In this document: in pieces, positions 21,141-57,611 of the stretch
Layout of the letters: each line of letters begins with the position of its first letter
Numbering within the stretch: position 1 is the stretch's first letter
Assembly (NCBI GenBank): GCA_000934665.2
Contig: KZ538070.1
Coordinates: 62,001 to 126,000 of the forward strand
Length of the DNA: 64,000 nt
Reading direction: 5' to 3'
Source of the DNA: Catajapyx aquilonaris
Lineage: Eukaryota
Notes under the pieces: generated by a model
Databases searched by the model: none
What the model saw: the letters and a program-made list of their open reading frames with translations, nothing else
What the model was told of the DNA's origin: nothing
Program-made: the position numbers and the translations under genes

Positions 21141-21196
21141 TAACCTCATGTTTTTTTCCGTTTCAGAACGCTGGTGACGTCACGTGGCAGCCCGAC

Positions 21197-21272
21197 ATGG
21201 TTTCACACAAGTGCAGGGTGTTCTTGCTTACGACGTTGGTCGTATGTAGTGCAGCCCTCTCCAAAGGATTAG
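21197..21272 (+). CDS. Cirl: First coding exon, signal peptide MVSHKCRVFLLTTLVVCSAALSKGL
   Basis: Acceptor tttttttccgtttcag ends 21166; gacATGG at 21197; basic n-region then hydrophobic core; donor ag|gtgagt at 21273. Phase 1 matches the RBL exon (G+AG=Glu). Confidence 0.75.
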
Positions 21273-22269
21273 GTGAGTACCGTCCACGTCACATGTTTCT
21301 GACAGCCACGGACTGACAGCACGACATTGTTAGGGAGTGAGTGACATGAGGTATCGAGTATGGGGGCTTCAAAGAGGACGAGAAGTTCTTGAATAATTCA
21401 CGTAGGGGACCCGACCTTTTCGAAGGTCGTTTCTCCCAGTGTTTAGGATCAGATTAAAAATGAACCGAAAAGTATAGCGCTCCATTGTTTGCCAACCGCA
21501 CGTTCAGGAGAAGTGCAGCACCGACACCACTGTTATTACAGGTCCGCGTGACAATTTGATTACAGCCAAGAATGGCGTAATCTGAAAGACTTGTGGGTGC
21601 GTGTGAGTAGCATTTTTTTTCATGGCCCTGCATGTATTATTGAAGCAGGAAAAAAAAAAATAGCTGGCAAGTGGGACAATTTCGGGGGCCTGTAGGGAAG
21701 CCATATTTGCCAGAGGGGCGGGCGAGAGGCGCAACTCAAACACAAGTGTTCCGGTGGGTTGATTCGCAATACAAGACTGTACCTTCCGGGGGAATTTTTC
21801 AGGGTTGAAAAAGTTGTTTGGTGAGGAAAAACAAACGGCCTGGTTTCTAGTCTGAGAGTAAAAAAAACAACAATGCACTTGAGAGTTTACAAGTACGTGT
21901 TTCTGCGCTAAAACAAGCCCCATTGGTTCTGAAATCGATCTGGCCAATGTTTTTTTTTTTAAAGTTCGCATTGTTTTGCCAGGAGATGGAGACAATGCAA
22001 TTTTCTTGGGGAGGCTGTAACCGTTCTTAATGGCCAAGTCATCAACGTGACGCAATATGGCACGTTTAGCTAGTCATCCACGGAAAAGGGTGTGAAATTC
22101 TGTTTTCTTTTCCGATTTCCAAACGGACCTGCGAGGTTGACTGAACTGCATGTGAGAGTAAATAAAAATTGCCATATGTATAAGGATGTTTAAAAAATGT
22201 GACAGAAACGTAAACTGTTCAGAAACGCATGAACCCATTGGGAAATTATTATGCTATTTAATAATTAGG

Positions 22270-31700: not shown

Positions 31701-32929
31701 TGTCAAGAAGGTGTCTTTATCGTCTCGTCTTGTGAGGCCTGGGAAATATAAAGATGGCTTGAATTTTTTTTTCTTCCTAGTTTTATTTCAGGGAAATGAG
31801 GAATTACTAATCAGGCTAGAGCAGTGCTCTGAAAACTATGAATCATAAAGCTAGCCCCGTCTTTATTACGGCAATAACTTCAAAGGGGGCCGCTCTGTCG
31901 TCAGTTTGGACGACCATAATATCTCGCCACAATAATATAACGAGCACTATGCTAACGTTGTACTTTAAATGAAACAGAAACGCGACACAAATATTGATTC
32001 TAGTTCTCCACGACGTTTATAGCATGCATCAACTAAATATTAAATATTATTATTCGGATATTTGCCCGGTAATTATTTACGACACCAGATGTCGGCTAAT
32101 GAGAACAGTCCTAGTCACACTCCAGAACAAATCTGATGATCATTAACTTTTTTTTTTTTGTACGAATCAGCGACATCAGCACAATCTAGCGGGTAGATCT
32201 GACACTATCAGATTAGAGCCGGTATAAAACGAGGGAAAAACGTAGTATGGAAAACGATCCTGGAGGCTCCTGTTGCGAAACAGGGGGATCCATTTGCTAC
32301 GCTGGATTCGACGATTCTTTCCGTTGAGAGGGTTCGAGGACCTAACTCGGGTGTCCCATTAGGAGACTCGTGATGGCACGTATCTACAGGAAACCCTTCC
32401 ACCTCTGGATTTAGTCAAGTGTGGGTGTTCCTCTGTTTTTTCTAATGATGAGTTCCGGGTTCCGTCATTCTGCAAATTTTCACAAATTTGTAGTGGACAC
32501 AACCTGCCAGAACATTGCTGGTCACATTGTTGTATATTAGTGATGCTCATCTCCTTATTATTTAAAATGTCGCTAGCATTTTTATAGCTCCAGAGGACAC
32601 TTTTTTCTCCTCCACCAAGCTGCTCTGTGGGAAAGTGACATTTTGCAAATGCACCCCGACCGTTCCCCTAAATAATTAACACCGCTCCTGCAACAGAGGG
32701 AACGCCTAAAAATGGCAGGACATTTTCCCCTAAATATTTCATGAGCGAAGGTAGCAGGTAAGACATTCTGGGGAATTACGCTACGTAGTCACGTACAACC
32801 CGCCGTTGTATGAATATCATTCTTGACGTGGGAGAAACTAAGAATAGGACCACCTGTTGCCATGGCAACTGGGAAGAAAAATTTGTAAGATGTTCAATAA
32901 AAAAATTATTTGGAAATTATGAAAATGTG

Positions 32930-32990
32930 TACTAATAATTTTTTTTTCTTTAATTGCAGGTGAGTACATCCTGGGGAGTGGTCAGTAAGT
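32930..32990 (+). promoter_or_regulatory. Candidate recursive splice site (ratchet point), AG|GT at 32959/32960
   Basis: tactaat branch-like motif, T-rich tract, ttgcag|gtgagt, then downstream donors gtcagt (32981) and gtaagt (32985). Confidence 0.65.
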
Positions 32991-34258
32991 AGACTTGAAG
33001 CAGAATAGTGGTAATGGGGACAATGCTAACGAGTAAAATTTTTCCTGGTTTTCTGTGTGGTTCCGGCTCAGTGAAGGATGTCCCACCGTTTAGGCACGGT
33101 TTCAGGTGAAAAGATGCCCTCAGGTATAGTGCTGAAGTTAGGCTGCTAAATGGTGTGGCATTGGCCAGTGCTGTTTGTATAGTAAATGTCAAATTTTTGT
33201 ATCAAATTTAAAATTTAGATATTAAAGGACTAGACGATTTAAGCTAGCTAGTTCACTACGTTGTGCATGCAGAATACCCTCATTTGTGAGACAGGACCGC
33301 GGGATAAAGCGACTCTTGCAACCATGTATCTGCAAAGTGGAAAACTTCCTTCCCGTTTTTTTCTTCTCTCTTCCTCGAGGGTTCTAGTTCCCTTGAAGGA
33401 GTTCTAATCTCTGAACCACGAAATTGAACAGAGTAAAAAAAAAAAAGTAGAAAAGAGAAGGATATAAGGAAAAGCCGCCCATGTGCTTCGCCAGTCACAT
33501 TCGGAGCTCCTTTGAACGAAATAAAGAGTTAAGCGGACTCGAAACGCTATCGATTTGGTTCCGTTTATAACGTTCCTCTATAAGTCACTTGGAAGACAGA
33601 GAGAGAAAAAAAAAGAATGTACAAAGTGAAGCCGTTGAACCCACCTTTAAATGACCGTTTCCTGACCCAATCGCATCAGTCGAAATAGGGCTAGAAATAA
33701 TTCATTCTAGCGTCGGAATTAAATTAGACTCGACCTCTAGAGCCCAAATTGCCAATAAGAATCGGTGTAATAAATAACTTGAGGGGGGTGGGGGGGGGGA
33801 TTGTTGTCATCTGATTACAGAAGAGTGTTGCGGCTCGGTTCATCATCGTAAAAAAAGAGTGGCCCTGTTTGTTCCGGAAAAGGGATGACCACTTTACGTG
33901 CTGGAGGTCGGTAGGGTTACGACCCGGTATGAAATATCGGTGGACTCTGAGAGTTTTTTTTGAGTGGGGGGGGGGGGGGNGAAACCCAATTTTTTTTGTT
34001 ATCAGATGGTCTGGGGGCACAGCTTGACCAACGTTCCGCACGACAACTCTGTAGGGAAAAATATAATTATAGAGAGGACTGATTGCCCTGGTCAGAGCCG
34101 AGCCAACCCCTTGACGAGGGCGGAAGTAAATATGGCGAGCATACCCATAAACGCTAGGCGTAACCTCGTTTCGCACTGGAGATGGATTGGCAGGTGATGG
34201 GTGCGTGCGACACCATGCGGTGAGCCAGGTAGCTAGAGTGGGTAGAAGCGACGCCATG

Positions 34259-34312
34259 CGGTGAGTCAGCGACTCTGGGGACGTGACGTCCCCTAGAGTC
34301 GCCGACTCACCG
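34259..34312. repeat. 54-bp GC-rich near-perfect hairpin
   Basis: cggtgagtcagcgactctggggacgt-g-acgtcccctagagtcgccgactcaccg. Confidence 0.88.
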
Positions 34313-37300
34313 TTAGAGGCACTCTGTGGGCCAGGTTATTATTTATATTTTATTAAATTTTATTTCATACAAATAATGTGTAACCCACACAATTTGTGAT
34401 TGGTGTGTAGGAAGCGGAACCTACTTTCGAGGAACTGCTTATCAGAATGCGGGAACACTCGCAGCCTTCCCAGTAGACCAAGCTTACCGTCGATAGCAGC
34501 CTATTTATGCGTCGATAGACGTGCATCTTCATAGCTCATGAATTACGTATCGCGTCACCTATCCTGCCAGTCCCCCTATTTTTGGAAGGACGCGCAACGA
34601 CGTGAAGCGCTTTACCAGGTCACAGTAACCCAGTTTGACGATAGATATCAACATGAATAACACATAGTATTTTTTTTTTGGAAAGTGACCTAAAAATATG
34701 TTTTTTTTTTTTAAATAGTAGGTTGCATCTGGTAGGCTTCCGATAAATGCCATGGAGTGGAGGTTCCCACGTGCTTGCGAAGTTTCTGAAAGCTTCCCAG
34801 TGGACCGTGTTTGCCGAGGACAAATACCGGGGCCCCCGGAAAAACTGGTGATCGATCAGCTGCCACTCAGATCCCCTACCGTGTTATTTCTCTCCGGATG
34901 GGATGTATTTCACTTTACTATCGGAGGCTCTTAGCAACTCGGTACGTCCATATGCAAATGGGCTGGGGGGTCCGTACACCCTCTAGTATAATACGGTTTT
35001 CTCCCCTCAGGTCCTTGTATATTCAAATGCCCCCTACGTATACCCCTAGCATGCCAAGCATATAATATCACCCTGCCACTCGACCGTAATGAACTCTCGG
35101 GTATTCGGCCAAAATAATGGGTTTATGTTACGGGGGTTCCCCGGGTTAATCAAACATGGCGGACGGTAAGCCGGATTTTACGCTAAGGACTGTTTCATAA
35201 TTTTTCTGACATTTTCCACGTCCGCAAACATTAGCCTTTATGTATAATTGGTTGTAGCGCCATTATTGTCTAATCTTGGATGGCTCACCGCTAGATGGCC
35301 TAGTTGGTAACTTGCGGGGGGCGGGGCTTGGTAACTTGCGATCGTATGTGTAAACCTGATGTAAAAACATGTGTTTGGAGGGTGCGGACACAAATCCGGA
35401 GCCACCTACACCTTGATCTTGTTGCCTTCGATTCGGTTGTCAAGTGTTGCCTACCGCAAGCCGAAGTAAATCAGTTTGGGGGTTTACAGCCGACCGGTTT
35501 TTTTGTTTTTTTAAAAAATCCCATAGATGGCGTAGAATCTCAAAATGGCGACCTCTTTAATAAATTTTTACAAATTCGTACCAGGAGAGGTTGAGTGCAG
35601 AATATGATGGGTTGGTTTAGCCTGGAAGTTTTTGGTGGTGGGGGAGTTTTAGGGAGGGGGGAGAGAAGCCTCATCTTCCGCCATGCCAAGAGCTGCGGGG
35701 CCACTTAATCAAAAGGCAGAGCTTATTACCTGGCCAGAGTGGCCGCAGAAGGCTTCAGAGGGCGCCGCCTTCTTCTTTTTCCTTCTTTGTCCCGGGATCC
35801 TTTGCCCTCAAGCGCTGAATGGTCGACCCAGGCGTGGAAATATGCTCTTTTTTTCCCCCCTCCTCCAATCATGAATAGGATGATTAAGACATCAGGAATC
35901 GGACATTTTTGGGCCAATATTTAAATTTTGTTAAAAACATATTTGCAATAGTCATGATAAGTTTTGTAGGGTACAAAAGAAGGGGGTTGTCAAGATTGCG
36001 ACGAAACAGAACCCCCCTTCTAGATGAATTATGATTATTTACAGAGCGGAGAAGAAACGTGCTGTGGAATTTCACACTGGATGTTTATTTTCACGCCTGG
36101 GTACTTTGGCGATAATTGGAGAAAGGGGATGGTGACAGACGGTGTGTCGGCAAAAAAACCATTGAAGAGTACTATACACTTGTGTAGACATATCGGCTGG
36201 ATATATCCAAATTTTAGGTCTGAAGCTCAAATTAGTCTCCAAATGATATGTTTCAATTCTTTCGGATTGTCAACTTAGTATGTGCGTGTGTGCGTTTGGG
36301 AACCTCAGCAGCTGTACCCCAGAAAGGCCCTTCCTATCGAATGGAAAATTCCAGCTCGATTCTGGAAATTGACGCGGCCATGTTTAATAAACAGGGTCGT
36401 CCACATGGATACACATATCGGTGGACAAACATGCGACCTATATTATATTTAGAAAGGGGGACGATGACAAAAAAAAAGCTGGTCGCTGTTGGAAGAATAC
36501 AGGCCATCCTGTGTCCTCTTTGACCGCTTCATTCCCAGCCGTAGGGACCGAGAAGTATTGTTAACTTGCCCCCTCCTGGTAACAGTTGCAGGCCATTGAG
36601 GAAGCGAAGGACTCTTCATCATTCTGCAAGGAGGGGGACCATTATACGAGGAAGTAGCCAATGAGGTGGAACATGGCTTGATCAAGACCATTGTTGCAAC
36701 TTCTCTGTGTACTATCGCCTTCATTTACATGTTCCTTTCTTGTGGAATCTCCACCTACTCAGGCATGGTAAGTTTTACCTGCCTTCATCATAAGCTGGCT
36801 CCCTCTTGGTGATGGATGCTCTTCGCTCGGTAGCTTGATCTGGGCTTGCTCTCGCCATTTGTACCCGCAGCACAGCAAATGGATGCAGGCTTTTCAGGAA
36901 GGGGGCAATTTATCCATGAGGGTAGAAGAAGGAAGAAAGAAAAGAAAGAAAAAAATTCCAGGACTAATATCGCACGGGCCTGGAGAGAAAAGCCTTTTTC
37001 CCACTCTATAGGGATCCAGCCTGCTAATTTATTTGCGCTCTACTAAAGGCATGAATGTGCCCCATGTGATTTAAGGACCCCTGTTGTTATCCGTATTCAT
37101 TTAGCGCCATTTGTACTGTTTGCCATCTTGGGGCCGCCATGTTGGTGAGTCCTGTCCGCCATGTTGGTGAGTCCAGTCCGCCATCTTGGTGAAGTCATTT
37201 TTGGCAGCCATCTTGGTGCGTCCAACAGCCTGATCACAGATATTTAGACTGTTTTAGCGTACATTTGAGCGCGGTTGGTACAATAACCGTTTGGCATTTG

Positions 37301-40300
37301 TGTGATCGGCTTGTCAAAGAGACTCAGGGACGCGACTATTAATTAAACGCGTCGAAATTTTATGACAGTGTTGGATTCAACCGAGCGAGGTGTCCACACC
37401 AAATTGGGTATGGGTGGGAAAGGCAATTCAATTTTTACTGGGGGGTCGGGGTGGGGGGTGTTAGCCAACTGGTTATATGATTGCACCGAAGATGTCCTCA
37501 TTACATAGTGAGGGACGGTAGTTATATCACTTTCTCTGGAGAGATGGACCCTAGACGTGATTTTTCCTTCCTTGAACCACTTATTGCGACACTGGGCCCC
37601 CCCGGATTTTTTTATGGACAATAGTGTGTCGTGGCCATACTGCAGTATTGCATTTTTGTATTGAGGATTGATGTACCCCGTACCGTTGTGCGGGGAAAGT
37701 GAAGGATCGGAACGAGGTCAGCTCTATCCCCCCTTTAAAGCCGGAATTGATCGATGGCTGGGCATTACCATAAGACATTTTTTGTGCGTTAGGCAACCCT
37801 GTGATAGGTTTATAGCACATACATCACTGGGGAAAGGTGCCATCTTTGCAACTTGTTCGCTACATTTTTTTTTGAAAGGGGGAGGAGGGGGGGGGGGCAC
37901 TCTCGAAATTTTGCAATATACGCATTCCCCCTAGTACGTTCCCCCGTCCCCAAAAAAGAAAAAAACTGACAACCGTCAGTGTTTAATGAAATCCCCGTAG
38001 CCCAGCACCGCAGAGTTTGGGTAATTAGTTTAATTCAAAATGATGGCAGCTTCCATTCCCCTGTCACCACTGCTAAGCTCATCAAGTGGGGGAAAGTACA
38101 GTCGGGGTTAAGCGTGTCGGTGGATTCAAGATGGCGGAAATGTTCAAAAAACTGAGCCAATATTGATCACGTTCCGGCTGTGAAGGAAGCCTGATCATGA
38201 CGGACGTGGATGTATAATTTTTGGCCATAAAAGGACCGCTAATTGAGGGGCCGAGGGTTCCATCATGTGCATTTCGGGTCATCATCGGACCAAAAATGGC
38301 CAATGGAAAAGGGAAGGGAGCGAGAGAAAAAAAACTGAGGGGACAATTAGTGCGACCCCAATCTGTGTGTGTCCAGGGGTGGACACCAGTTTCATCTTGT
38401 GACCCGCGTTTGTCGTAATGAGATACTACCGGTTTTGTGAGGTCCAGGCTCTCCGGGGCGCCGGTCATAAAACCGGATTAGGCTCAGGCACTTCGGATTA
38501 CTTGCACAATCTGTACACAGATGCGTGTGTGTGCATGTGGGATAGGATTATAGTCCGGGTTGGCTTATCCCCTAGTGAGTGATGGCCGGGTTGGGCATGT
38601 ATGTACGTTCAGGTGGGCGAACCGACATATTTCTCACAATCTATCCATCTGTACATCATCATGTAGTCAGATATCCATAGTTGTATCGCCTACTTTCCAT
38701 TCCTGCAAAGAAATACTGTTGCAGATCGCCCACATTGTCTCTATGGGCCTATAAGTACGCCATCACCGCCATCTTGGGTCCAGCCCACCAGCCTTTTCCG
38801 GCTGTGAGTGACACACCAGCAGCCTGAATCCGGTGGTGCAGCGAATGAAATGCATGGTAGGGTGCCCCCTCCGGATTTTGGTCTGGTCCATTCCGGAATG
38901 GAGCCTTCGGCGGTGAGGAATGTGGTTCGTGGTCGTACCCCCTCCCCCCCCCCTCCGAGTTTCGACCCAAAAAAATGTTGATTCGCATCCCAGCGCCACT
39001 TTTACCCGCTTTGTCAAGTGTACCTGGGACTAATACCCTGGGATGGCGTCGTTTTTTGGGGGAGACGTCCCAACGGCGATTTCGAGCTCCCTGGTCAAAT
39101 GAAATGTTGTTTTCATAAGTTGCGACCCAGTTTTTTTTTTGGGGGGGGGGGGGCTCCCCCCCCCCCTCCCCACCCGTAAAAAACCGGAGTGCCTAGAGAC
39201 TAATGTAGTGTAATCCAGATGTTAGACCTTAAAGAGTCGGCGGTACTATTTGGGTGTTAGAGTTTAGTAATTGAATCGATTTGATGCTGGAGGGCACCAT
39301 TTTGGCGGAGTTAGGAGTCTAAGGGAGATTTGCATTATGGTTTCGGATGAAACAAGCAGTGGATTACTATTATTAAGCAAGGTGAAGATCAGACTTGTTG
39401 ACCCTGCTAATTTGTAGGAGAATGAATCCCGATTGTTCATTTCACAAATCGTCTATAGAATTGTCTTTAAAAATCGTAATTCTCCATACACGTGTATAAA
39501 TTCTATAAAAATTGACATTTCCACAAAAATCTTTGAATTCTCCATACATCTTCAATGAATCCTTCAGAAAATTTCAGTTCAGTATGTAAGTGTCAATTGA
39601 GAATACATTTTTCGTCACTGTCAACAGGTGGATATGAACCAATGAAAGTTCCCATATCAACTGTCCCAATCAGGTGTGGTCATTCGGAATGCTTATGGTT
39701 TCACAAATTGGAATTACAGCATTTTTTGAAGCTGCGTAACCGTGTTAGCGGTTGATTCTAGAAAACAACGTGTGTTTAGCATTCATATGATCCCGAACCA
39801 GCATCAAATATTGATTCGGCCATTTTTGGGCTGTTTAGCCAGCGGCTGTCAACACTATCGGTATGTAGGGCAATAACATGCTGGAATTCAAGTTTGCAAT
39901 TAGCGATGTTTATCAGGAAGGTCCCTTACTAAGAAAACCCTCGCCCACACATTTTGGCCTACTGTTACACATGGCTTGATGTACAGGAAGCATTTTAGTG
40001 TTTTTTTCCACATTTAATTTAATTTTTTTTACGACGCCATCACTGACCGCTAATGGCGCTTAAGTAGTGCAGGTTTCATTCGTGATAGGCGTATAAACGG
40101 CTCCTTTACATACACTCAAGCCCATCCCTCCAGCAGGCGTTTAATGAGTGATTGTTTTCATTAACGGCCAGTTTTTTTTCCTTTTTTCTTTTTTTTAAAA
40201 AAATTAAAAAAAAAATCTGGTTCTATTCCAGAAGAAAAAACCGTTTAGGTTGGTGACGACAGCTAACAAATCCGAACGCACGGTTTGTGTCATGCACAGA

Positions 40301-41164
40301 GAGCGAGGAAGTAATTACATTCATTGCTACCCGGCCTTTGAATTTAATGCCTGGCTCCGTTGGTTTAATTTAGCAAAAGCGCGCTAGAATAATCCCGACT
40401 TTGCCTGAAAATGGTGGACTGCAATTTGGATATTTAGCTACAGGCCAATCAGGAGCCGCGTGTCTGCTTGCGCATGCGCGGTATGTAAAATGCCCTCACA
40501 CGTAGCCTGAGCGATAATTTGAGTCCCAGGTGGCAAGTTTGGGACGGAAGCATACACTAGGCCTAATAATTGCGACAGTTATCAGCGTGAGAATACCCAT
40601 GATGAATAGGAAGAAGGCGGTACCCCCGGATTTCCAGGAGAGAACAAAAGTAGAGCCAATTAGACCCCTCTAGAGGGATCATCATCATCATGATCCCCAG
40701 AATGATCCGACCAGGCCAGTTTTCTAAGGTCCTAATAAGAAGGGGTCAAGTCCACTGACAATGACAAATGCACTGATTATGGAAAAACAAACGTTGGAAA
40801 GAAGGGTGGTTGAACTCCTATGTTGAATTCGTGCCTGATGAAACGCGCTTTTTCTTGCGGAGAAGACGTCATGCTTGGTTGACACTTTGGCTCAACGACG
40901 CAAGGGAGACATTATCCAGTCATGCATGCTTGAGGACATCTCCTTTCCACTTCTTTTTGTAGCTAGAACCCGCCTTTAGGGGAGTTTAAAAGGGATGCCG
41001 ATCGTGACCTGATGCACGTTTTCTCACTTCTAATGTGAGGGTCACTTGCGGTACTCGGTGTCATTGTCGTGACAGACATCGACGGGACAGTACAGGAAGT
41101 TAGGTGTCACGAGCGGGACCCACACCCCGAAGACGCTCGAGATGGCCCGAGCAGGCTCGAACCC

Positions 41165-41382
41165 TCTTGCGAGGCGACCCGGGGAAGCCCGGGGAAGCTC
41201 GAAGAGGCCCGAGGAGGCACGGCGAGGCCCGAGGAGGCACGGGGAGGCCCGAGGAGGCACGGGGAGGCCCGAGGAGGCACGGGGAGGCCCGAGAGGCACG
41301 GGGAGGCACGGGGAGGCCCGAGGAGGCCCGAGGAGGCCCGAGATGGCACGGGGAGGCCCGAGGAGGCCCGAGGAGGCCCGAA
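41165..41382. repeat. GC-rich minisatellite (ggcacgggga/ggcccgagga 10-20-bp units)
   Basis: Directly visible; produces stop-free ORFs in several frames. Confidence 0.93.
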
Positions 41383-41844
41383 CCCTCTCTCGCGGCATGG
41401 CTACCATACTATAGGACGTAAGGTGCGACACAGGGTGGCACTGAAATAATTCCTGCGTGATCCACACATGGAGGAAGGTGGAAAATCGATAGGGGACGCC
41501 TAGGCTTGACTTTGTTCCTAACTCCGCCCCATTGTTCCCAGCACGTAACCTTTTCCCATCTGTCGGAAAAAGCTACCAGTAGCATTAAAAATGTAGTCGG
41601 TTTGGTCCGAGTTGAGTAGCAAGTTGGAACCAACCCTAGACCAAGTTCCAAAGAGCGTACGTAACGTACTTTTAAAGCGCTGAAATGAAATTTTTGCACA
41701 CTAAAAATCGGGCTAAAGGGATTTTCGCATTCTTGAATGTATTCGTGTTTGAAAAAGCCCGGTTTTTTTTTGAATAGTGGAAAGAGCTGCATTTCCTCTG
41801 ATCTGACTTTTTTGCTGGATTTTTTTTTTTGGGGGGGGGGGGGG

Positions 41845-42042
41845 NNNNNNNNNNNNNNNNNNNNNNNNNNNNNNNNNNNNNNNNNNNNNNNNNNNNNNNN
41901 NNNNNNNNNNNNNNNNNNNNNNNNNNNNNNNNNNNNNNNNNNNNNNNNNNNNNNNNNNNNNNNNNNNNNNNNNNNNNNNNNNNNNNNNNNNNNNNNNNNN
42001 NNNNNNNNNNNNNNNNNNNNNNNNNNNNNNNNNNNNNNNNNN
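41845..42042. other. Assembly gap (198 N) flanked by poly-G
   Basis: N run; smaller N runs at 28983-28991 and single Ns also sit mostly in G or C homopolymers. Confidence 0.99.
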
Positions 42043-43384
42043 GGGGGGGGGGATATCTTGCGACTTTTGCAACCGGTTTTATGTACAGTATTTACTGGTC
42101 GTATACAGCATGCGACAATGTTGAAATATTTGGGTGTGAATTGTTATTCGATTGAAAGGTGCATTGTCGTATTAAAACTAGTGGGGGGGTGTAGTAATTG
42201 CACGCAATTAGTTAATGCAACGTATCGGGCCATTGTGAACCCAGTTATAATAAATCATAATGTTTGAATTCTAGGAAGCCTCTCTGTTGTATATATTGTT
42301 ACGGTTTGCTGAAATTAATTAATAGGGAATTTGTCACGTTATACCCGTTTAAATGGTTGAGTCATTGTGAGGCCAATTTCGACTAATGAATACTGGAACA
42401 ACAAGCGACAAGGAAAACATGTGCACTTTGCAAATACCATCGTGACTCACGGTGGCCCATTGGTGACCTATGGTGTCACGGATACCCGGAAGGTACCTGT
42501 AGGATGTGATGTCAGTGGTTTTTACAAGGTGGCAATACCGTGCGGTGTTGCAAGACTTGCCCTGGTGAGAGGCATCTATTTAGTGGCATCAAGGCAAAGT
42601 AATTGCGACAGCCTCGGCGAAGGTGGCCGTGAGTAATTTGTTGGTTAGGGACCGTAGGGAGAGTGGACTATAAAAAATGGTTGTTTGTACGCCTCCACCC
42701 AAAAATGGCGTCCTTGAGGAAGAGGAGATTCTCCTAAAAGTTTCCTATCAAGCTTCTTCAGCCATCTTGGGGCATGCTGCAACACCTGTTCTTCAATTAA
42801 AAAGTCTCGGAGACTGTAATTCGATTGGGGAATAATCGGCGGGGTTTTCTGATCTTTGGGGTTGACGGCTTCAAGATGGGGGCTGCGTGTCTGATCCTTC
42901 CAAACTTTCGGCCTTGGGGGTTCTCAACAAACCAGGTGCATGACCCAGACCCACAACAACTGGCGTCCGCGACTTTTTTTTATGATACGGTAGTGACGCC
43001 GGATATGCTGCTAAGGGGTGACCCATGAAATCAGTGACTAAGCCTTGGTGCGTCAGCTGAAACTGCTCGGACAGGATCATGAAACGAGTGGTTTGACATG
43101 TTTACAGCCGGGAATTTGAGGTAATGTTTTGACTCCATGGCTAGCGAACCCTGGAGGAGTGTGACTTTCATAGCCGTGTCTTAATCCTTGGCCCTAAGGC
43201 GCCCAGACGCATGCCATAAAGGGGTTCGAAGCTACCCTTGGTTGGAGGAAAAAAAACAGCCAGGTCGAGACCTTCGACAAGAATGGCGTTATTTATGAGA
43301 AAGACTGTACTTTGGCCGGTTGATAAGCCCCAGACACTGGTACTGTAACGGAGCGTGGTGCGGATCAAAAAAGACTGAGCCACA

Positions 43385-43755
43385 TGTGGTGTACTCAGAG
43401 GTAGCCAAGGTACTCAAATGCTGTGGTACTCAGTGGAGCCAGTGTGGTACTCAAATGAAGCCAGTGTGGTACTCAAGAGGTAGTCAAATGTGGTACTCAG
43501 AGGTAGCCAAGGTACTCAAATGTGGTACTCAGTGGAGCCAGTGTGGTACTCAGAGGTAGCCAAATGTGGTACTCAGAGGTAGCCATGGTACTCAAATGGT
43601 GTGGTACTCAGAGGTAGCCATGGTACTCAAATGGTGTGGTACTCAGAGGTAGCCATGGTACTCAAATGGTGTGGTACTCACAAGATAGTGGTACTCAATG
43701 GATCCAGTGTGGTACTCAGAGGTAGCCAAATGAGGTACTACCGATGAAGCCAGTG
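43385..43755. repeat. Minisatellite gtggtactcagaggtagccatggtactcaaatg
   Basis: Repeated ggtactca cores; similar ggtact cores at 12253-12335. Confidence 0.92.
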
Positions 43756-46700
43756 TCATTGAGCACTTTTAGGTACCATGATTCATCCCACAATATTATT
43801 CTTGGGCGATAGGGTGCCATTCTTGTATTCCCCTTGCCAGTGCATCGTTTGACGTCTAATTTGAATACATAAATATTTAAATCCATTTGCTAGGAATCGA
43901 TACTATATAAGTCCGAACCGCTGAAAGAATCTACATTGGCAAACGCCTCTTTTTTTACAATAGAGGGGGGGAGCTTCGCTCTTATTTATGACTGGATAGT
44001 AGGGGTTCTCCCAAATGGGGGTACGTCGGACGTACTTGCAGGGAGGACCGGTAGAGAGGCGCTCGATTTGGGAAGGTGGGGAAAGTATCAGGATGCATTA
44101 ATCACCGAGGGAAGTTCTCTTCTGGAAAAGCCCGTTGTAAAAGTTCATTTCAAAACGACAGGAACCTTTCCTTTCTAATTTGGGGGAGGCTGATTTATGG
44201 CGTCGGAGAAAACTCGTTTTGTTGTAATTGAATAACCACGCATCTGGCGTTTTTTTGATCGCACTTTGGACCGAAACTTGTGGTGAGAACGTACGGAGAG
44301 TTTGTAACGATACTCATTGGATTTATTTTTAATCCCGCTCAAAGAGTCGGGGACGGTCCCGGAATCGTTTACGATATCACTATAAATAAAGATAACGGGC
44401 CAGTAAAGCCTCCCGGACGGGGAGATACCGTCCTCGTCCCAGGGAAGAGGTTCGATAACCCTTTGGCTAATTCGGTGCTTAGGGTTTACGGCTACCATGT
44501 CCAAAATGTGCACATACCGCTGGAAGGGAATGGTGGGGGTATTTTTGTGGAGATAAGCGGTGTGGCAACCCTGGCTGAGCCCTGGCGGTTGAGGATGTAT
44601 TGGTCTTGCTCGTGATTCTTACGAAGGATGCGGTGCCTTTGAAGGGTGCTCCTGGGTTGTATTTGGAGATTTTATTGATGATTTTTGGATAATTTGATGA
44701 TTTGTGTGGGTTTCGACAATATTAGTGAATGATAGTCGGGATATATTAAGTTACCCTAGTTAGAGACGAAGGCTGATGTTTCTGGGTGGTTGTGTGCCTT
44801 TTGCGGATGTTCGTTGGTTATATGTGGAGAATTTATTGAGGATTTTTGGAGAATTTGATGATTTGTGTGGTTATCTATAATATTAGTGAATGGCAATCCG
44901 GATTTTCGTAAGTGTATACCGTATTTGCGGAGGTCTCTCGCGGCTGAGACAAATGATGTGTTCTCGGAGATTAGTGAATGACAATCCGGATTTACGCAAG
45001 TGTACGCCGGATTTACGAGGGATGAGCGACTCTCTAGAGACCGACAGGGTGCAAGGCTTGTAACATTACAAGACACGCTTTTCTGGACACAGTTACGACG
45101 AGACCCCTCGGTTTTATATTTACTCCCGGTGGGACCCAGGCGAGATTTACAGCGTGCGACAACCCAACACCATCCAGAAGGCACTAATTCCGACCGGGTG
45201 GGTCGCCCTAAAAGTGTCGAAATCCCGTTACAGCATTTTCAATGACATGTTACAACCAGGCGCTGCCTTGGGGTAATTCCAGGGACGGAATACGACGGGA
45301 CTTGACCCATTCTCCAGGTAATTAAGGCCTCCGGAACATTGTTCCGGAGTATTTTTTTTTCGGCAGAAGACTCCCCGATAATCGCGGGAACGGAAGCCTC
45401 ACCCGTTCGGGGTGACGGCCCTGGAGATAAGTGGTGATGACCAGGCCGGCTTGATGTCCACTGTAAAGGCGGGACTGGAGACAAAGGGTGGAAGCATCTC
45501 CTCGGAAGCGTAACTGCCGATAACGGAGACGGAAAAGGGGACACTTTATTGCCCATTGCCCATGTCTCCATAAACCAGGATTTGTGAGGTCATACTATAT
45601 TTATTTTTAAAAAAATCTGAAAGTCGGTGACATTATTTTCCGACAAAAAAAAGAGCTCGTAAGTAAACAAACAAGTGGGGCGATTCAGCCGGGTTAGGAT
45701 TCGACGGAGCGAAAAGCCCTGGAACAGATCACGATAATGGAGGCCAATATGACAGCGGAACTTGGCAAAGATGCGGGAGGCGAGAAGATGGCGGAGTTTT
45801 TTCAGCAGAAAAAAAAGTCGATTCGACGTCTCCAGGCGCTTATCAAATCAGGCCTCTTGGCGTAAATGGGTTTAGAAGGAGGAGACTCATTTCATAACCG
45901 CCGTTTGCTCTTCGGTTTAGGACCAATAAGTCGCGCCATCTTTTTTTCTTCAGTTTCATCAGAAAGGTTGACAGAGCAGGATGCGTGTGCCTTACATAAT
46001 AGATATCGATTCAAATCGACTGAATTATGGAGCGCATGAAAATCAAAAGCGAAATTACTGTGTCAACTACGGTAGTAGACGTAACCAATCTGTGGGTAAA
46101 CACTACAAGGTCGTACGTTGATCGGAGTCGAGGTTGTCGTCTTGATATATTCGGTATTGTGGACACAGTATGACGTGCATGCATGGGAAAGAGAGAAAGG
46201 GGGAAGTACGGAGCATGCAAACTTCACATCCCCGATGGCCCCCTCGGAATCGTCATTACAGGGCTTTTCTTTTTACCATTTGCACGCCCGGCTGGAGGGA
46301 CACGCACTTCTAAAAAAGAACTAGAAAACGACAATGTTCATATCAGCTGTTAACGAGGTCTCGAGACACAATGAATCATACGGGAAAACGATACGGTTCA
46401 GAAAATCGGGAGACGAATGAATGTGACCCACTTGAGGAAAAAGAACACTTTCTTCACGCTGGAGTGAACCCTTACGACGTTGGTACTGCACCAGTTGTCG
46501 CATTGGAGAAAGCCTTGACCGACATCCGAGATTGGAATATCCAGAGTCAAAATACATGCTAGTTGACGGCTCACCGCTAGATGCAGCTTCCCAGTGTACT
46601 ATAAATGTGACGGCTCACCGCGAGATGCAGCTTCCCAGTGTACTAAAAGTGCCGACTCACCGCTCGATGGCGCGGCAGTACGTTGTGGATGGTTCACATG

Positions 46701-48007
46701 CCAACCGCTGTGCGTTGCGAGCAGTAGTGTTTGACTAACAAGGTGTGAGAGCATGTACTGATAGAGTTCGACAAGCGATCGAGTGTTTATTGACCAAACG
46801 AACGGCGTGCAGGTAATTGTTGGAAAAACTGGCCCCGATTTAGCTCCCTATGGCATGTTCCGGGAAACTTGAGCATGACTTGAACGAGAACGAGTCGCAA
46901 TTTGCATCAAATTATTTGTCATGTATGACATAATTTTTGTGCGCTTCCTCAATTAAACAGGTAGCATTGACACCATCGAATGACACCAACATTTGGCGAC
47001 ACCTCAACGCATATCGGGTGGGTCCTGCGTGTACCCGCTACAACCCGCACTACCCGCCCTCTTTTGTTTGCTCTCTAATTAGCTATTGGTCTTTGAAAGG
47101 CACGTGGGGCGGGTGGTAAGAGAAAATTGCCTTCGACCAAGTTGACACGTCAGAGAGAAGGGGGAAGGCTCGCGTGTGGAACAGTTTGCCGGACAATGGA
47201 ACCCGCCTGTGTCAACAACTGGACTTGCATGACCAGGTGTATACGCTTACCTTTGCAACCCCTCTCTGGAAATGGCATATCTTCCAGCGGTGTCGTCCTC
47301 CGTTATCAGCTGGCCAGGAAACGAGGTGATTAATTTACAGGCTGTAGGACAGGACAGGAGGACATGAACAAGCGGAATTGCATTTATAAACGGGGAACTG
47401 ACACGTACGGAAAACCCAAATTTTTGTAGTTCCCTGGTGGAGGGTTGACAGAACTATCGAGCACAAATATGGCGCCGTCTGCGGTCGTTAATAACAGCTA
47501 ATGCACTTTTTTTTTGACCGGTATTGTATTTTTTCCCCATGCCCCGGTGGCCTTTTTTTCCCCCTTCTGAAAAGCTTCCAGAAGATAAATGATGGGCATG
47601 ATTTTTCTTCCTTGTCGTGACTCGAAAATCTGTTTACTCATGGACACATCTCAAGATGTGTATTTTTGGGGGAGCTCCACATAATATATGGACAATCGAT
47701 CGTTAAGACACTGCCTTCCCCTAGTACTGTCAGACATGTCTGAATAATGCAGGGTGTACAGCAACATGCTGCAAAGTGTGCACCGTACGCGAAAATCAGG
47801 TTTGCGTGCGGAAATTTTTGCAAGCTCATGACGTTCCAGGTTAGTTGGCATGCAATGTAATTAATAGAATGTGCGTGGATGGAGGGGTTGAACCAAGGGG
47901 GGTAAAGAATTACTGTCGTCAACAGCATGGTAACACCGGTTCAATTGTGGCGACAACTGTCACCGTCACACATGTCCGGACCAATTAATTTCAAGTTATA
48001 TGTGGAC

Positions 48008-48750
48008 TTTCCGAGCATTCCCGGACTCTCCCGATGATCCCCGAACATTTCCGGACTCACCCAACATGGCCCGAGCATTCCAGGACTCTCTCGATGTGCC
48101 CAGAACATTTCCCGAACTCCTCCAAGCTTCCCTGAGCATTCCCGAAGTCTTTCGATGTGCCCCGAGCTTTCCAGGACTCTCCCGACGAACTCCGAGCATT
48201 TTACGAACTCCTCCGAGCACTTCCGGACTCTTCCGACATGACCCGAGCATTCCAAGACTCGCTCGATGTGCCCCGAGCATTTCCCGAACTCCTCCGAGCA
48301 CTTCCGGACTCTCCCGACATGGCCCGAACATTTCCCGAACTCCTCCGAGCTTCCCCGAGAATTCCCGTACTCTCCTGACATGGCCCGAACATTTCTGGAT
48401 TCTCTCGATGTGCCCCGAGCATTCCAGGATTCTCCCGACGATCTCCGAGCATTCCCCCCGAGAACTCCCGGACTCTCCCGACATGACCCGAGCCTTCCAA
48501 GACTCTCTCGATGTGTCCCGAGCATTTCCCGAACTCCTCCAAGCGTCCCTGAGCATTCCTGGAGTCTTTCGATGTGCCCCGAGCTTTCCAGGACTTTCCC
48601 GACGATCTCCGAGCATTTCCCGAACTCCTCCGAGCACTTCCGGACTCTCCCGACATGACCCGAGCCTTCCAAGACTCTCTCGATGTGTCCCGAGCATTTC
48701 GCGAACTCCTCCCAAGCTTCCCCGAGCATTCCCGGATTCACCCGATGTGG
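48008..48750. repeat. Complex satellite (ccgagcatt..cccgaactcct / ggactctcccgacatg units)
   Basis: Roughly 20-30-bp modules with a higher-order repeat (blocks at about 48111 and 48529). Confidence 0.93.
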
Positions 48751-51700
48751 TGCGAACGTCGCCGGAGTGGTCGCGTTCACTAATTTAACCCAAGGCTGAC
48801 CGTTTAATATATTTTTAAAAAAATAAACAAGCTGGCAGGTTCTTCAACCCTGACGGGTTGTCAATCTCGTAGGCCGCTGCCCCTTCCGCGTACACGCGAA
48901 AAACATTGCGAAAAACCCAGGGCGCGCTTTATATTCTGCCTGTTAATTAACCGGTGGGGGTGTGCTCAAGTGGGCGTAAAACTAGTGGGGAGGTTTTTTG
49001 AAACTCCTCCAGCAGCACGTGGTTTACGCGCATCTTTGTTTCATAGTCGTTCAAAAATATTAACAGCTCTCAGNGGGGGGGGGAGAGCTTTGAAATCGAT
49101 TCAAACTCTCATCATCATTTCAGGGGCCTTGGAAAAAAAATGTGTGTTGATAAAACTAGGGTTTGGCCCATTTAACTGGTGACATACATGGTTTTGTATT
49201 GGTTAGTTTTATTATTTAAGGCGGGATCATAAAATAAGGATTTTTGTGGCCTCGACTGGGGTGACCTATTCCTGCTTTCGTTTCGCCTTGGCTGATGTTG
49301 ACCCCCTTGTACAGGGTGTCTCAGCATGTTCATAGTTAGCATCTTTATGGTCAATAAAGCCACCCAAGCTTCTCACGCTACAAACCGCCATTTTTTTGCA
49401 CCCTAACCAGGCCAAAAAAAAGTAGGGGCGACATATACACCCCTTCTGTGTCTACTATGCATGGATCTTGAGAAAATGAAGGGGACTGGCTTTTGTAATT
49501 TCCTTGACTGGGAAAAGGAAATTTATAGTCTATAAAGATGCAAATTCTGTTCCTTTTTTTTGTGAAGGGGAAGGGGAGGGGAGGTTACCCCCACCACTGC
49601 CACCCTTAGCTTCATCACACACCCTCGGGTTAGCTTCAAACTCCTTTAGAAAGGCCCCTTTTAAAACGTTCAAAAAAATTTAGCTTCATACTTTTGTGAG
49701 ATTACCTAAATAATGCACTTACACGAGTAAAATGATGCACTTACCTCCATAAATAAATTCGCATACATAAATATAATCATGCACTTCCCTAAATAAATTA
49801 ATTCCCATAGCCGAACAACATTATGCACTGGTGTAAATAAATTTATCCTCATACATAACTTATGCCATACATCAATAAATTTATGCAGCAGCCTGAATAA
49901 ATTTATGCATCTTGGAATAAAATAGTGCACCAATTTATTATGAAATGGGCTAGAATGTTGAGAAAATTTTGTAAAGACTTGAAAATGTATGTGGGATAGG
50001 TGCCTGGGGTTAATATGGCTCGAATTTGGGCAGGGCGTAGCCACACCTTTTTACTGGCCCAAAAACCAGCGTTTAGCATTTCAAGTATGTGTGTGTGTGT
50101 GGAACACCCACAGTGTTGTTTACTGACATGGATGGATCCCCAGCAATTTCCAGCCTTAATAGGCGTAAAAATAGGGATTATTCAATGCTGAAATATTTAA
50201 AGCGTGAAGCTGACTCCAGAAAAAAAAAATGCGGACGAATTAAATTGCGCCTATTAACCCCTCACGAACCTGTAAAAAAAACTTTTAGTAAATCAAATTA
50301 CCGGCATTGCGATTAATTTACGGCCATAAAAAACAGTATGACGCCATTTTACCCAATTGACAGAAAATTAGATGAGGTCATTCTGGTCACCTCCCCAAAT
50401 TGACCCGACAGTGTTGCCAAACCGGTTTTATGCTAAAATTCGCGTCACGCGTCGGTGTGAAAGCGGGCACATTTTCTACTCGCGTTTTTTTTCTCTCTCT
50501 CTCTCTTTCTTTCTAAAGCGTGCGTGTGTTTGGTGGTTCGGAGCACGCGAGGCATCTTCTTTGGTTGGCTGGTCTTGACAACGCCGCCAGCAGGGGTGGG
50601 AGAAACACGCACCAAAAAAAAAATGGTGCGTTCAGAATGGAATTTGTGGAGTTTTCGTCTGGGAATAAAAAATATATATATAAAAGGTGTCGAGTCATAT
50701 CTTCTGGAAGGGAAGATCATGCGTGGTTGCCAGTTGGATTAAAGATGGCGGCCATCAGTCCGGACTAAAAATGGCTGCCGCCACGTGCTAGCCTCTAATC
50801 CAGGCGGCGTGGAAGCAACCTAGCCGCGTATACTTTTCTTTGGCGACGAAGCCGTGGGAGCGAGTCATTTGGAACCCCGGAGCCTCCTCCATCGCCACTT
50901 AAAACGTCATAAAGTCTCATTTGGTGTCGTCTCCTCCGCCGCTTCCCAGGACGACCACCGTAAAATCCATCTTTTCGCCAACTGGAGGAATTATGTCTGA
51001 TTCCAAGCCTTGTTTCTGAGCTGGGGGGAGGCTAAGAAGGATGTAAAGCGTTGTAACGGCGGCCGGCGCTTCCAATATTTAGGGAAAAGCAAGCGGGGAG
51101 GGCGCCTCGGGAACACCGAGAGTTATGGAGATGGCGGCCTGGTTACGACTTGGGCTTCTGGGCTGGTAATAGTTGGGGTAACTGATGCCAACAATGCCTG
51201 GAGCCACGGAACAAAAATGGATGCCAGTTGCAACCGCCATTTTTGATCCAGACTATGGTTGGCAGTTGTATCGGACTAAAAATGGCGGGCGCATAGCCCC
51301 AAGTGTAAGTGTATCTGACATGGTTCGAGACTTTGCTAATGAAATGGGGGGGTGCACAAAGGGCGTCAAAGTGAGGCCCACGGCCATATTGGATGATGGA
51401 TGACGTGAACAGCAGGAAGCTACATGGTTTAACCCTCCCCTCCAAAAATATGGCGTTTGTTTAGGAAAAGGAGCCACAATTTTGTGGCTAATTTTTTGTG
51501 TGTTGGGGAAGGGGTAATTTTTTTTAACGATCCTTGTGGGAGGTAATTATCAGAAACCAGCTGGTTTGTTCAGTGATAGTACCGATTTATTGAAAAAATA
51601 TAAACCAGACAGGATATGGCTGACATCAAGCGTGTCCGAACCCCTCTCTTGAAGGAGTCTCGACATGCCGGGCACGCTTCCTGAACCACGTCCTCGGGAA

Positions 51701-52024
51701 GCCGCGGCTTGCCCCCCTTTAAAAAAAAACAGAAAGACTCCCCGACACGGTACCTCCATGTTCTGTCCGGAATGAGAAAGCAAGGAATGGACCGTACAAA
51801 TTAGGTCGCTTGCGATCCGGAGCCTCAATATCCCCCATCGCAGCCACCGGATTTCGGAAGCCGTTTGCCGCATCCGTGGTTAGATTTCGGGGGCTTTCGC
51901 ATCTTGGTATTACCCCCCACAGCTAGGCATATCCACGCAATATGGACGATACCAGGCTGGCAGTACTCAAAATGGTACTTGGGACTCGCAATATTCCGGT
52001 TTAGAGTCTCAATATGGCTGGTTG

Positions 52025-52258
52025 TAGTGTGATTGGTGAGAGCTGCAAGATGGCGGCCTCCATGTGGGGTTTCATTGGAGTTTCAATATGGCGGCCACTA
52101 GAGCTGCAAGATGGCGGCCATGTGATTGGTCAGGAGTTGTAAGATGGCGGCCTCCATGTGGGGTTTCATTGGAGTTTCAATATGGCGGCCACTAGAGCTG
52201 CAATATGTCGGCCACTATGCTGTGATTGGTCAGGAGTTGTAAGATGGCGGCTTCCATG
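52025..52258. repeat. Tandem repeat rich in (c)aagatggcggc abutting the RBL exon acceptor
   Basis: About 7 copies of aagatggcggc/aatatggcggc. Confidence 0.88.
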
Positions 52259-52282
52259 TTAATTTTTTTGGTTTTTTTCCAG

Positions 52283-52475
52283 AGCGGCCGAGATACCGTA
52301 CGGCGTACGCCTGCGAGGGCTCCACCTTGCGGCTGGAGTGTGAGCCCGGAGCCCTGATCCAGCTCATCCGAGCCAATTACGGCCGCTTCTCCATCACCAT
52401 CTGCAACGAGCACGGTAACACCGACTGGAGCGTCAACTGTATGTCGCCAAGATCGCTCCGGGTCCTGCACGGCAG
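52283..52475 (+). CDS. Cirl: RBL/SUEL lectin N-terminal half ([65 protein letters not shown])
   Basis: Acceptor ttttttccag, donor ag|gtgagc; 193 nt, phase 1 to 2; carries the SUEL ANYGR motif and Cys pattern typical of insect Cirl. Confidence 0.96.
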
Positions 52476-54027
52476 GTGAGCCCTCTGGCGCCGGTGTATG
52501 GCAACTCAAAAAAAGGGGGGGCCTGCGCAAGGATCTAAATTTCANGGATTTTTCAGAATTTTCAAAAATTGGGGGGGTAGTTATTGATCTACTTATGCAG
52601 ACCCCTAGGGCCATCCGTATCGATGGGGGATCTGATGGTGAATGACTACCCCCCACAACCGGTGCTGGAGTTAGTGTGTTGTAATTTTTTCTGTCATGTT
52701 ATTACCGATTCTGTTGCTTCGCTTCACAATTTAATTGCGGGCTGTTTTGGGCCTGTCTGTTTCGTAGCTCCCCATGCACAATGAAGCGACAGGATCGATA
52801 CCTGGATACATGTGGCCACATTGTCTATACCCAGTGGTCAGCTTTCAGTACCCCTCAAAATTTTAACCCTGGCGTAACATAACCCCTAGCTTTTTGGACA
52901 AAAACCGCATGTACTAACTAACAAGTGGTCTCAAGCAGGTTTTCCACAGAAAAAAAGACTTAAGTGCAATTTTTGCACCGATTTTTTTTTTTTCCTGTAG
53001 GTATTGGTATACATACCCGAAACATACCCACAGCCAAGTGGCTCCAGAAGAACCGCGGGGGAAAAAAATCCATTTCTTTTTTCCGGACTTTTTCCGGGGG
53101 AAAGTCCCGGAGCGTGAAAATGGCTCGTTAGGACTGTCTGCGGCCAAAAAGTATTGTGCCGGGTTGAATGAAATCCGTTTGATGGCAGCTCTTCTCTTCT
53201 TCTTGGGAGCTTTTTTTTTTGTGAACGCTATCCGGGGAGAATCACGCCCGGAGAAGAATCCGGAGCAATCCAACCTCCCTCCAAGATGAATCTCCTTTTG
53301 CCAATAACGGAAAAGCAGTAGAGAAAGCCGTTCTGCAAATACGAAATGAGTCTTGGATTTTCTGTGTGATCCGGATTCAAAATGGACGATCCGGGCACTG
53401 CCAGACACGGTCAGCCTCCTGTAAAGATAGACAGCAGACGGCAGGTGTTGGCGCTCAAGCTGCTCAGGCACATCTTTGCATCTGCCCATGCTTAAAGATT
53501 TTTCCGCAACATGTTCCGCACCATTGTACCCCCATCATGGCCATACACACACACAAAAAAAAAATACCGGTACTGGGTTTGAGCCAAAGGTGCAAAGGTG
53601 CTGCCTCTTGCCCGATGCTAATTCAGTTACAAGTCCTGTGAGAGCTAGGAAAAAATAGAGATGCAATTTCGTAGAACCACCTGCTGCTGCCTGGGACCAG
53701 TTGTCGCCTTCAATATGGAGACATTTCTTTTTTTTTAATCAGGAGGTTTCGTGGGGGTTGGCAGAAGGTACCGTTGTCTTCGCTCTTCGAATGGCACGTA
53801 TTGTGATGTAAATGAAGACGGAATATGAAACGGAGCCTTCAGGGGTCGGTTGAAAAGAATCATCCGGGCTTAAGCCACTTTTCCACAGGTTGAGTGCTTC
53901 CGACTGACAGTCTCAAAGAAAAGCAAGAAGCACTGTCTTAACCCAGTTCGGTTCAAAAAGCTTTTAGGCCCCATATTCGACGATCCGGACCTTCAAGGGG
54001 ACGGACAAAGGAATATACTTGAATCTA

Positions 54028-54390: not shown

Positions 54391-55285
54391 GTATCTCGGA
54401 TAAACGTGCTTGAGACCATGTTCTTGTCAAATCCTGCAACTGTATGTCCCCTACCCATATGCCCTTTACAATGTTGGTACCCTTGCATGAAAAGGATTAC
54501 TATATCTGACCCTTGGGAAGTTTTTTTTGCACACATTTTCCGACCCCTGCAGAATCTACCCCCAAATTTTCTCTGTCCTGAAGAATGTTGACATATAACT
54601 CGGACCGGGGAATGCGTTATTCCCAAAAGCATTACTGGTTGACCCCTTCTGCACTGGACACCAAGCAGTCACTCTGCTTGGAAGCAAGGAGTTATTTTTC
54701 CCTGAACAACCATTATGGTCGAAATATTATGGCCTTTTTCTGTTTATTTTCAACCCCCCCTCTCTCTTGCTATATTTCCTGTGGCTCAGAGGCGGACCAC
54801 TCTGATGCTACGAAATTTGAAAAAAAGAAACACCCTGTACCTTGGCTTTATGTTTTTTTTTTTTCTGTTTCCATGTTCTGTGTGTGCTTTCGTTGTTTGT
54901 TGTGTACCATTTTTTCATGGTTAGGAAAGAGTGTGAGGGCTATTAAGACGCCTTTTTTCACACTAGTAGATGGTGTCATATTACCAAGTCGTCTCAATCT
55001 TTTTGGTCGATATAGTGCCCACAAGATGTTCCTGTGCATGGGGGGAACTGTTGTGTATGGGGTTGGGTTCAAACATGGGCAGGGGTTGGAAGCACCAGCT
55101 GTGGATCCCAGCTGCAGATGAGGGGGGGAAATCCTTGGGAATAAGCTAACAAAATGTGCTCAATACTTTTTTGCAATTTAAATCTATGAAAGCACAGTTC
55201 TTTTAGTTTCTTTTTTTTAAAGTTATTGGCTTCCTATTTTTCCCCATTTTTTAGTTTTCCTTTTTTTTCCAACCGTTATTTCCAG

Positions 55286-55392
55286 ATGTCATACCATGTC
55301 CAGCTGCAGTGTGGAGGTTACCAGTGATGATTTTGGGGATCCGTGTCCCGGCACCCATAAATACATAGAAGTGCATTATTCCTGTGCGATAG
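55286..55392 (+). CDS. Cirl: RBL C-terminal half, alternative exon A ([35 protein letters not shown])
   Basis: Long polypyrimidine tract then tttccag acceptor; donor ag|gttggt; 107 nt, phase 2 to 1; intact DPC.GT.KY motif. Confidence 0.88.
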
Positions 55393-56074
55393 GTTGGTTT
55401 CCATTTTTTTGCCTCTTTAAGGAGCCGGGAATTTTTTTGGGGGGAAAAAGTGGTTTGGATGTGGGCAACCTTCAGCTTTTGCTGTGAAAAAGCAGTGAAG
55501 CAAATCGCAGCTTGAGGAAGCACACATCCTAACCTGTTCTTTTTTTTCCAACTTCCCAGCTTCTTCGTTATAGGATTATAGGAGGAGGGGTCCGGCATTG
55601 TTGCGGGTAAGTCCGGACTCACCTATCGGCGTGCTGCAAGAAAATGACCCAAATTTGTACAGCGTTAAAAACCTGGCAACAACACCTGCCCCCAAAAGCT
55701 TCCCGACCTTTCAACTAGATGCCGCTCGGCTCCGACCGCCTTTGTTTCCCCCCTCCTGCCTGACCACCTCCCCAGCATTTCCACCACCTCACAGAAGGAG
55801 GCGGAGGGCCATCGACCTTCAGAAGTTGGCTCTGAGCGAGGTCAGCTCTTTTTTGGAGGCTACTCCCGTTCATACCCACCCCCCTATTTCCAGCCCCTTC
55901 CGCCAGATGGCAGCACCTCCTTGTTGTCGATGGGTAAACGCGCCCGTAGCGACCAAACCCGGAACTATACCCGGGAAATTTGAAAATTTTGCAGCACGCC
56001 CCTCCGAAATTAGTTTTAAGTGTTGTGAGGGGGGAACGCAACCAAAAAAAAAATGTTTGGGTTTTTATCACCAG

Positions 56075-57530: not shown

Positions 57531-57611
57531 GTAAGAGGATGTACCATGCTGCCACTACTCACATGCCTTTCTCACTTGGCTGGAAATTAACTTTTCATCT
57601 TATTACCACAG

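Follow-up and report, generated by a model that had tools for sequence, protein, structure and literature searches.

In the present study, a candidate recursive splice site was characterised in the 31-kb first coding intron of a gene that is, judging by its coding sequence, a latrophilin/Cirl adhesion GPCR of Catajapyx aquilonaris. The site lies in a 64-kb stretch of contig KZ538070.1, which is called the window here and supplies all positions given below. At 32959/32960 on the + strand (a slash marks a splice junction), the acceptor CAG abuts the donor GTGAGTAC directly. We put the chances at about even that this junction is a ratchet point of the Drosophila type with a short cryptic RS-exon, and the narrower claim, that the acceptor ending at 32959 is used in vivo, appears probable from its motifs. 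A sequence-only reading of the same DNA had proposed a ratchet point at this place. All the Drosophila-type sequence properties that we examined were present, and use in vivo keeps the conditional wording which that reading itself had given it.

The coding part of the gene was examined from exon 2 onward. Exon 2 codes for the first half of a SUEL/Gal-lectin domain (PF02140 relatives), and the open reading frames downstream of it hold the rest of the lectin, a hormone-receptor motif, the GAIN/GPS part and a family-2 7TM region. When the exon 2 protein was used as a query, 436 proteins among 444 candidates were found at E <= 0.001, and the 120 relatives listed were nearly all latrophilin/Cirl proteins of insects and crustaceans, with 75-87% identity. 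The closest full-length hits, obtained by tblastn against the window, were the Cirl proteins of cockroach, termite and odonate, with about 64% identity over about 1000 residues. By these matches the gene belongs to an insect-like pancrustacean, and the database has no protein from a near relative. In addition, two exons further downstream (55286-55392 and 56075-56181) have exactly 107 nt each, are in the same phase and both code for the second half of the lectin domain; their sequence suggests a tandem duplication with mutually exclusive use. The RNA contig described below uses the second of them, and the first has the weak donor TAG/GTTGGT. The coordinates of the intron, its flanking exons and the motifs inside it are collected in Table 1.

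Table 1. Features of the first coding Cirl intron and its flanking exons, in window coordinates
Feature	Position	Strand	Basis
Exon 1; ATG at 21197, signal peptide, phase 1 end ...GGATTAG, putative acceptor 21165-21166	21167..21272	+	last 30 nt in RNA contig; 5' boundary read from sequence
Original 5' splice site GTGAGTAC	21273..21280	+	TAG/GTGAGT, 8/9 consensus positions
Branch-point-like TACTAAT (holds CTAAT; A at 32935, -25)	32930..32936	+	sequence; 1 of 28 acceptor-like intron sites with CTAAT at -40..-18
Polypyrimidine tract and acceptor, T9 C TTT AA TTG CAG	32937..32959	+	15/20 Y, 14/20 T, TT at -6/-5
Proposed ratchet point, recursive (regenerated) 5' splice site GTGAGTAC	32960..32967	+	sequence
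Predicted cryptic RS-exon, 25 nt, frameshifting (21-nt in-frame option 32960-32980)	32960..32984	+	sequence; without counterpart in RNA contig
Tandem downstream donors GTCAGT (32981) and GTAAGT (32985)	32981..32990	+	6/9 consensus each; GTAAGT fits all six intronic positions
Exon 2 acceptor, T-rich tract and CAG (...TTTTTTTCCAG at 52282)	52262..52282	+	sequence and RNA contig end
Exon 2, first half of SUEL/Gal-lectin domain	52283..52475	+	contig covers 52281-52475, joined directly to exon 1

The RNA data were the contigs of one public run (X1), which were found with the query 55200-64000 (share 0.05) and aligned to 32800-52544. One contig of 765 nt (depth 21.5) covers 52281-52475, and its unaligned letters correspond upstream to the final 30 nt of exon 1 and downstream to the opening 30 nt of the exon at 56075. 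Thus, mature RNA joins 21272 straight to 52283, which confirms the intron bounds 21273-52282 drawn by the sequence-only reading. Such a direct join of exon 1 to exon 2 is expected with or without recursive removal of the intron. An insert of 21 or 25 nt is absent from this one contig spanning the two exons, though contigs drop rare variants. At 32800-33458 the contigs have a depth of 0, and therefore run X1 is silent on the use of the 32960 site. Small X1 pieces of 18-61 nt at 37.9, 38.9, 41.5 and 44.2-44.5 kb look like repeats or sequences of other organisms. Furthermore, the X1 contig differs from exon 2 of the window at 14 of 195 positions, and the 8 differences listed are all synonymous by codon count; its 30-nt flanks from exon 1 and exon 3b are identical to the window despite these differences. 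The exon 2 mismatch could mean that the contig is chimeric, that it comes from a close relative or that it represents a divergent haplotype.

At the candidate site itself, nine T at 32940-32948 are followed by CTTTAATTGCAG up to 32959, and GTGAGTAC occupies 32960-32967. Across the junction, CAG/GTGAGT (32957-32965) agrees with the consensus at 9/9 positions. In the 20 nt before the acceptor there are 15 pyrimidines, 14 of the 20 nt are T and TT stands at -6/-5; this T count is the highest among all 18 AG/GTRAG sites, both strands considered. The 70 nt upstream of the acceptor form an AG-free zone, and a CTAAT with its A at -25 is predicted as a branch-point-like motif. In strength, the acceptor at 32959 is comparable to the real acceptors of the gene. 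The branch-like tactaat, the T-tract and the TTGCAG/GTGAGT described in the earlier reading are right to the base, with TACTAAT at 32930-32936 and the junction at 32959/32960. That reading had also claimed that the eight nucleotides of the donor are the same at both ends of the first segment, and GTGAGTAC does stand at both 21273 and 32960. At the sequence level, ligation of exon 1 to 32960 would rebuild TAG/GTGAGT, the same donor as the original one. The donor consensus of fly ratchet points is GTAAGT, whereas the Catajapyx donor is GTGAGT.

Placed at about 11.7 kb into the intron by the earlier reading, the site was found at a depth of 11,687 nt (32960-21273) of 31,010, that is, at 38%. It would cut the intron into segments of 11,687 nt and 19,323 nt, of which the second is approximate and the true intron length uncertain, because an assembly gap of 198 N (41845-42042) lies within the intron. 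The sequence of the window is all in lower case and holds 212 N, including those of the gap. The only other lenient AG/GT candidate in the intron is at 51541 (GAG/GTAATT, 13/20 pyrimidines), which is 740 nt before exon 2 and far weaker.

Downstream of the candidate site, the donor GTG/GTCAGT at 32981 would define an exon of 21 nt and the donor TCA/GTAAGT at 32985 an exon of 25 nt. By a crude consensus count, the regenerated donor scores 8/9 against 6/9 each for GTAAGT (+25) and GTCAGT (+21). The direct join of exon 1 and exon 2 reads ...SKGL-ERPRY.... Inclusion of 32960-32980 would add GEYILGS in frame and keep the lectin domain intact, and inclusion of 32960-32984 would shift the frame to a stop 21 codons on. 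Translation therefore gave the same outcome as the earlier reading for both of its cryptic exons, the 21-nt one as in-frame GEYILGS and the 25-nt one as a frameshift to an early stop. According to Joseph et al. 2021 (PMC8605326), ratchet points open a short cryptic exon of about 50 nt that in most cases does not keep the reading frame, and the donor rebuilt by the first ligation wins over the one at the end of this exon. Since the regenerated donor outscores both downstream donors here, the site fits the donor-competition model of that paper. A downstream donor that may define a short, mostly out-of-frame cryptic RS-exon is thus present in the sequence, and the predicted exon is unusually short. 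With the fly cryptic RS-exons (Joseph et al. 2018, via PMC8605326), the Catajapyx site shares the nearby downstream donor, the out-of-frame 25-nt exon and a ratchet-point donor closer to consensus; however, its exon would have 21-25 nt against about 50 nt in flies, and its downstream donors form a tandem with a spacing of 4 nt, in which one donor gives an in-frame product.

The published fly criteria that can be applied at the sequence level, namely the AG/GT consensus, the tract with TT, the intron length, the segment sizes and the position of the branch-like CTAAT, all agree with what was found in Catajapyx. In Duff et al. (10.1101/006163), fly ratchet points combine juxtaposed splice-site consensus around AG/GT with a marked pyrimidine tract, and 196/197 of them (99.5%) have TT at -5/-6. 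Their branch points fall between -36 and -21, the introns that hold them span 11.3-132.7 kb and the segments 2.6-63.6 kb; further criteria of that study are conservation and junction, sawtooth and lariat reads. The zero-nucleotide ratchet points of Drosophila (Ubx, kuz, osp, fz, luna and Bx; Hatton 1998, Burnette 2005 and Duff 2015, via 10.1101/006163) have in common with the present site the juxtaposed acceptor and donor, the T-rich tract and the TT at -5/-6. Also shared are a branch-site motif near -25 to -30, by sequence only in Catajapyx, a host intron of more than 11 kb, segments of 10-20 kb and a host gene of the neural or developmental class. The Bx ratchet point, too, has a host intron of about 31 kb (PMC8605326). 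The present site differs from these in its host, which is a distant non-drosophilid pancrustacean, and in being known from sequence alone.

As for how often such sites are used, just 6% of the fly introns longer than 11.3 kb are recursive according to Duff et al. (10.1101/006163), and this counts against our reading. In Pai et al. 2018 (PMC6110457), recursive sites occur in 63% of fly introns longer than 40 kb, and single sites tend toward the intron midpoint, to be compared with the 38% of the Catajapyx site. The five text supplementary files of that paper have no entry for Cirl, CG8639 or FBgn0033313. No relevant literature report on recursive splicing of Cirl was found, and a loose search across other arthropods gave no useful match.

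An alternative to the ratchet point is chance, in which a T-rich stretch and CAG merely happen to stand before GTGAGT and the spliceosome ignores the site or uses it as noise. We consider this alternative unlikely, though by no means negligible. Only two AGGTRAGT sites occur on the + strand of the 64 kb, the exon 1 donor and the 32960 site, and three on the minus strand; these counts are near the expected 2.0 per strand, and therefore the octamer alone is unremarkable. From composition, 0.91 such octamers are expected in the intron, which is AT-rich and repeat-rich with 32 tandem-repeat rows. Chance is also favoured by the RNA contigs, which have no joint to 32960 besides their zero depth around it, and by the fact that the flagged motif was the best of the entire 64-kb window. 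However, the requirement of a pyrimidine tract cuts the expectation to 0.018-0.03. The mean number of AGGTRAGT with at least 15/20 upstream pyrimidines per intron was 0.018 in 1500 first-order Markov simulations, and the empirical product for the same composite motif was about 0.03 per intron, the branch site being left out of both estimates. Among the 20-nt windows of the intron, 3.4% reach 15 pyrimidines and 0.33% reach 14 T.

The acceptor-like sites of the intron also speak against chance. With these sites defined as YAG with at least 15/20 pyrimidines upstream, 28 were counted on the + strand, and GT follows only one of them, the 32960 site, where it matches GTRAGT at 6/6 positions. In the controls, the match after an acceptor-like site was at most 4/6 on the minus strand (n=30) and at most 3/6 in 1-21100 (n=15). 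The 32960 site is also the one site among the 28 with CTAAT at -40..-18, a motif that is present in 3.1% of 27-nt windows. No comparable site was found in the upstream 21 kb, and the composite motif occurred 0 times on the minus strand of the window and 0 times on either strand of 27 arthropod-bearing metagenome loci with Cirl exon-2 relatives (204,596 bases), some of these loci being redundant. These loci reach at most 3-6.7 kb upstream of exon 2, and no strong motif was seen in them; one locus (L007) has two weak AG/GT sites (13/20 Y, after GAG), with nothing comparable in the short upstream stretches of the other 26. Judged by these counts, an accidental origin of the composite motif is unlikely.

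A second alternative is a cassette microexon, either an ordinary one or an expressed RS-exon like mI/mII of Ubx, in which the 21 nt are kept in some tissue to place GEYILGS between the signal peptide and the lectin, and the 25-nt form acts as a poison exon. This we hold to be rather improbable. In its favour, inclusion of the 21 nt would preserve both the reading frame and the lectin domain, and among the 120 listed relatives there are Cirl isoforms of the same species that differ by an insert between signal peptide and lectin, at the same intron position. The inserts have 9 aa in Harmonia (P0117/P0119 vs P0118), 8 aa in Penaeus japonicus (P0094 vs P0096) and 6 aa in Oratosquilla (P0032 vs P0036), and longer linkers are found at this position in Bemisia, Macrosteles, Megachile, Onthophagus and Phaedon. 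At this intron, alternative exons thus recur in the Cirl family, and a true microexon is therefore a possible reading of the 21-nt in-frame form. However, GTCAGT, the donor of this form, is made weak by its C at +3, a perfect GTAAGT stands 4 nt on, the one junction-spanning contig lacks the exon, and the inserts of other species share no sequence with GEYILGS. No isoform protein was found either: the signal peptide of the gene is unmatched in a collection of 5.8 billion proteins, where the query, a 41-aa read-through of the signal peptide, scored no same-species protein in a comparison with longer proteins only.

We also considered whether the inserts that start with G-E or G-K (Bemisia, Macrosteles and Megachile) are a footprint of exons opening with GTGAG or GTAAG, and this idea was rejected. 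Read-through of the donor of exon 1 itself also gives G-E-Y, and such inserts are therefore equally explained by an alternative downstream donor. A leafhopper-like transcript (L006) has L-G in the canonical form as well. As regards the expressed RS-exons already known (Ubx mI/mII with 51 nt in flies, and the annotated RS-exons of vertebrates, Sibley 2015 and Blazquez 2018, PMC6224609), the Catajapyx exon shares with them a start with donor consensus and a donor competition that would decide on inclusion, but it is much shorter and is a candidate predicted from its motifs.

The intron around the site was also searched for repeats and mobile elements. It is rich in minisatellites, none of which lies between 25465 and 37134. 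Large arrays are at 41170-41381 (period 10/40), 43391-43728 (35-99) and 48011-48745 (30-172), and the first of these adjoins the 198-N gap. At 52028-52259, a 94-nt unit is repeated 2.4 times (90% matches), and about 20 nt separate this array from the pyrimidine tract of the exon 2 acceptor; units containing GATGGCGGCC, which are related to this repeat, occur also elsewhere in the intron. It is most improbable that the site is a decoy or regulatory pseudo-exon, or a splice-like motif from a transposable-element family unseen as a repeat in the window: the T-run after an A-rich stretch could be the end of an element, but the site and its surrounding 3 kb are found just once in the 64-kb window, the 105 Pfam-scanned open reading frames (of 112 with at least 90 aa in 1-52282) gave two sub-threshold matches and no transposon or gene domain, and a search of the metagenome contig collection for the exact 23-mer that spans the junction gave 0 matches.

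If the ratchet-point reading is right, removal of the intron would proceed as follows. Once transcription has passed 33 kb, U2AF and U2 would bind CTAAT, the T-tract and CAG, and U1 would bind GTAAGT at 32985, so that a 25-nt exon is defined. Exon 1 (end at 21272) would then be ligated to 32960, and the first 11.7 kb would leave as a lariat. This ligation would restore TAG/GTGAGTAC, the original donor, which would outcompete the cryptic exon's own donor. The restored donor would be spliced to the exon 2 acceptor at 52282, removing the cryptic exon together with the remaining 19.3 kb or so, and the resulting mature mRNA would be the same as from one-step splicing. A much bolder extension, which we regard as very improbable, is a three-way switch in which the regenerated GTGAGT competes with the donors GTCAGT (+21) and GTAAGT (+25), which would yield the canonical receptor by full skipping, a 7-residue N-terminal insert before the lectin domain or a frameshifting poison exon lowering the Cirl dosage, respectively; in that case, a single regulated RS-exon position of ancient origin would have given rise to the inserts of beetle, shrimp and mantis shrimp, each in the version of its lineage.

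In the locust, a recursive site of the fly type was predicted from its motif in the 230-kb intron of NPF1 (PMC8892266). The present candidate has in common with it a motif-based prediction for a non-dipteran, whereas the locust study adds U2AF65 RNA immunoprecipitation to a prediction which in Catajapyx is made from the DNA only. In view of that prediction, a fly-type recursive site outside Diptera is therefore not a new idea. The mechanism, the motif and the exon-definition logic are already described, and the Catajapyx site would add one more member to the class.

If the site is used, a pancrustacean only distantly related to Drosophila would provide a clean case of recursive splicing of the fly type, and in a mechanosensory and neuronal adhesion GPCR. 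The site would also offer a genetic handle on the gene, since a weaker donor at the ratchet point should force the frameshifting 25-nt exon into the mRNA and knock the gene down. Furthermore, its use would speak for ratchet points as a way of coping with long introns that is general among arthropods and not special to drosophilids.
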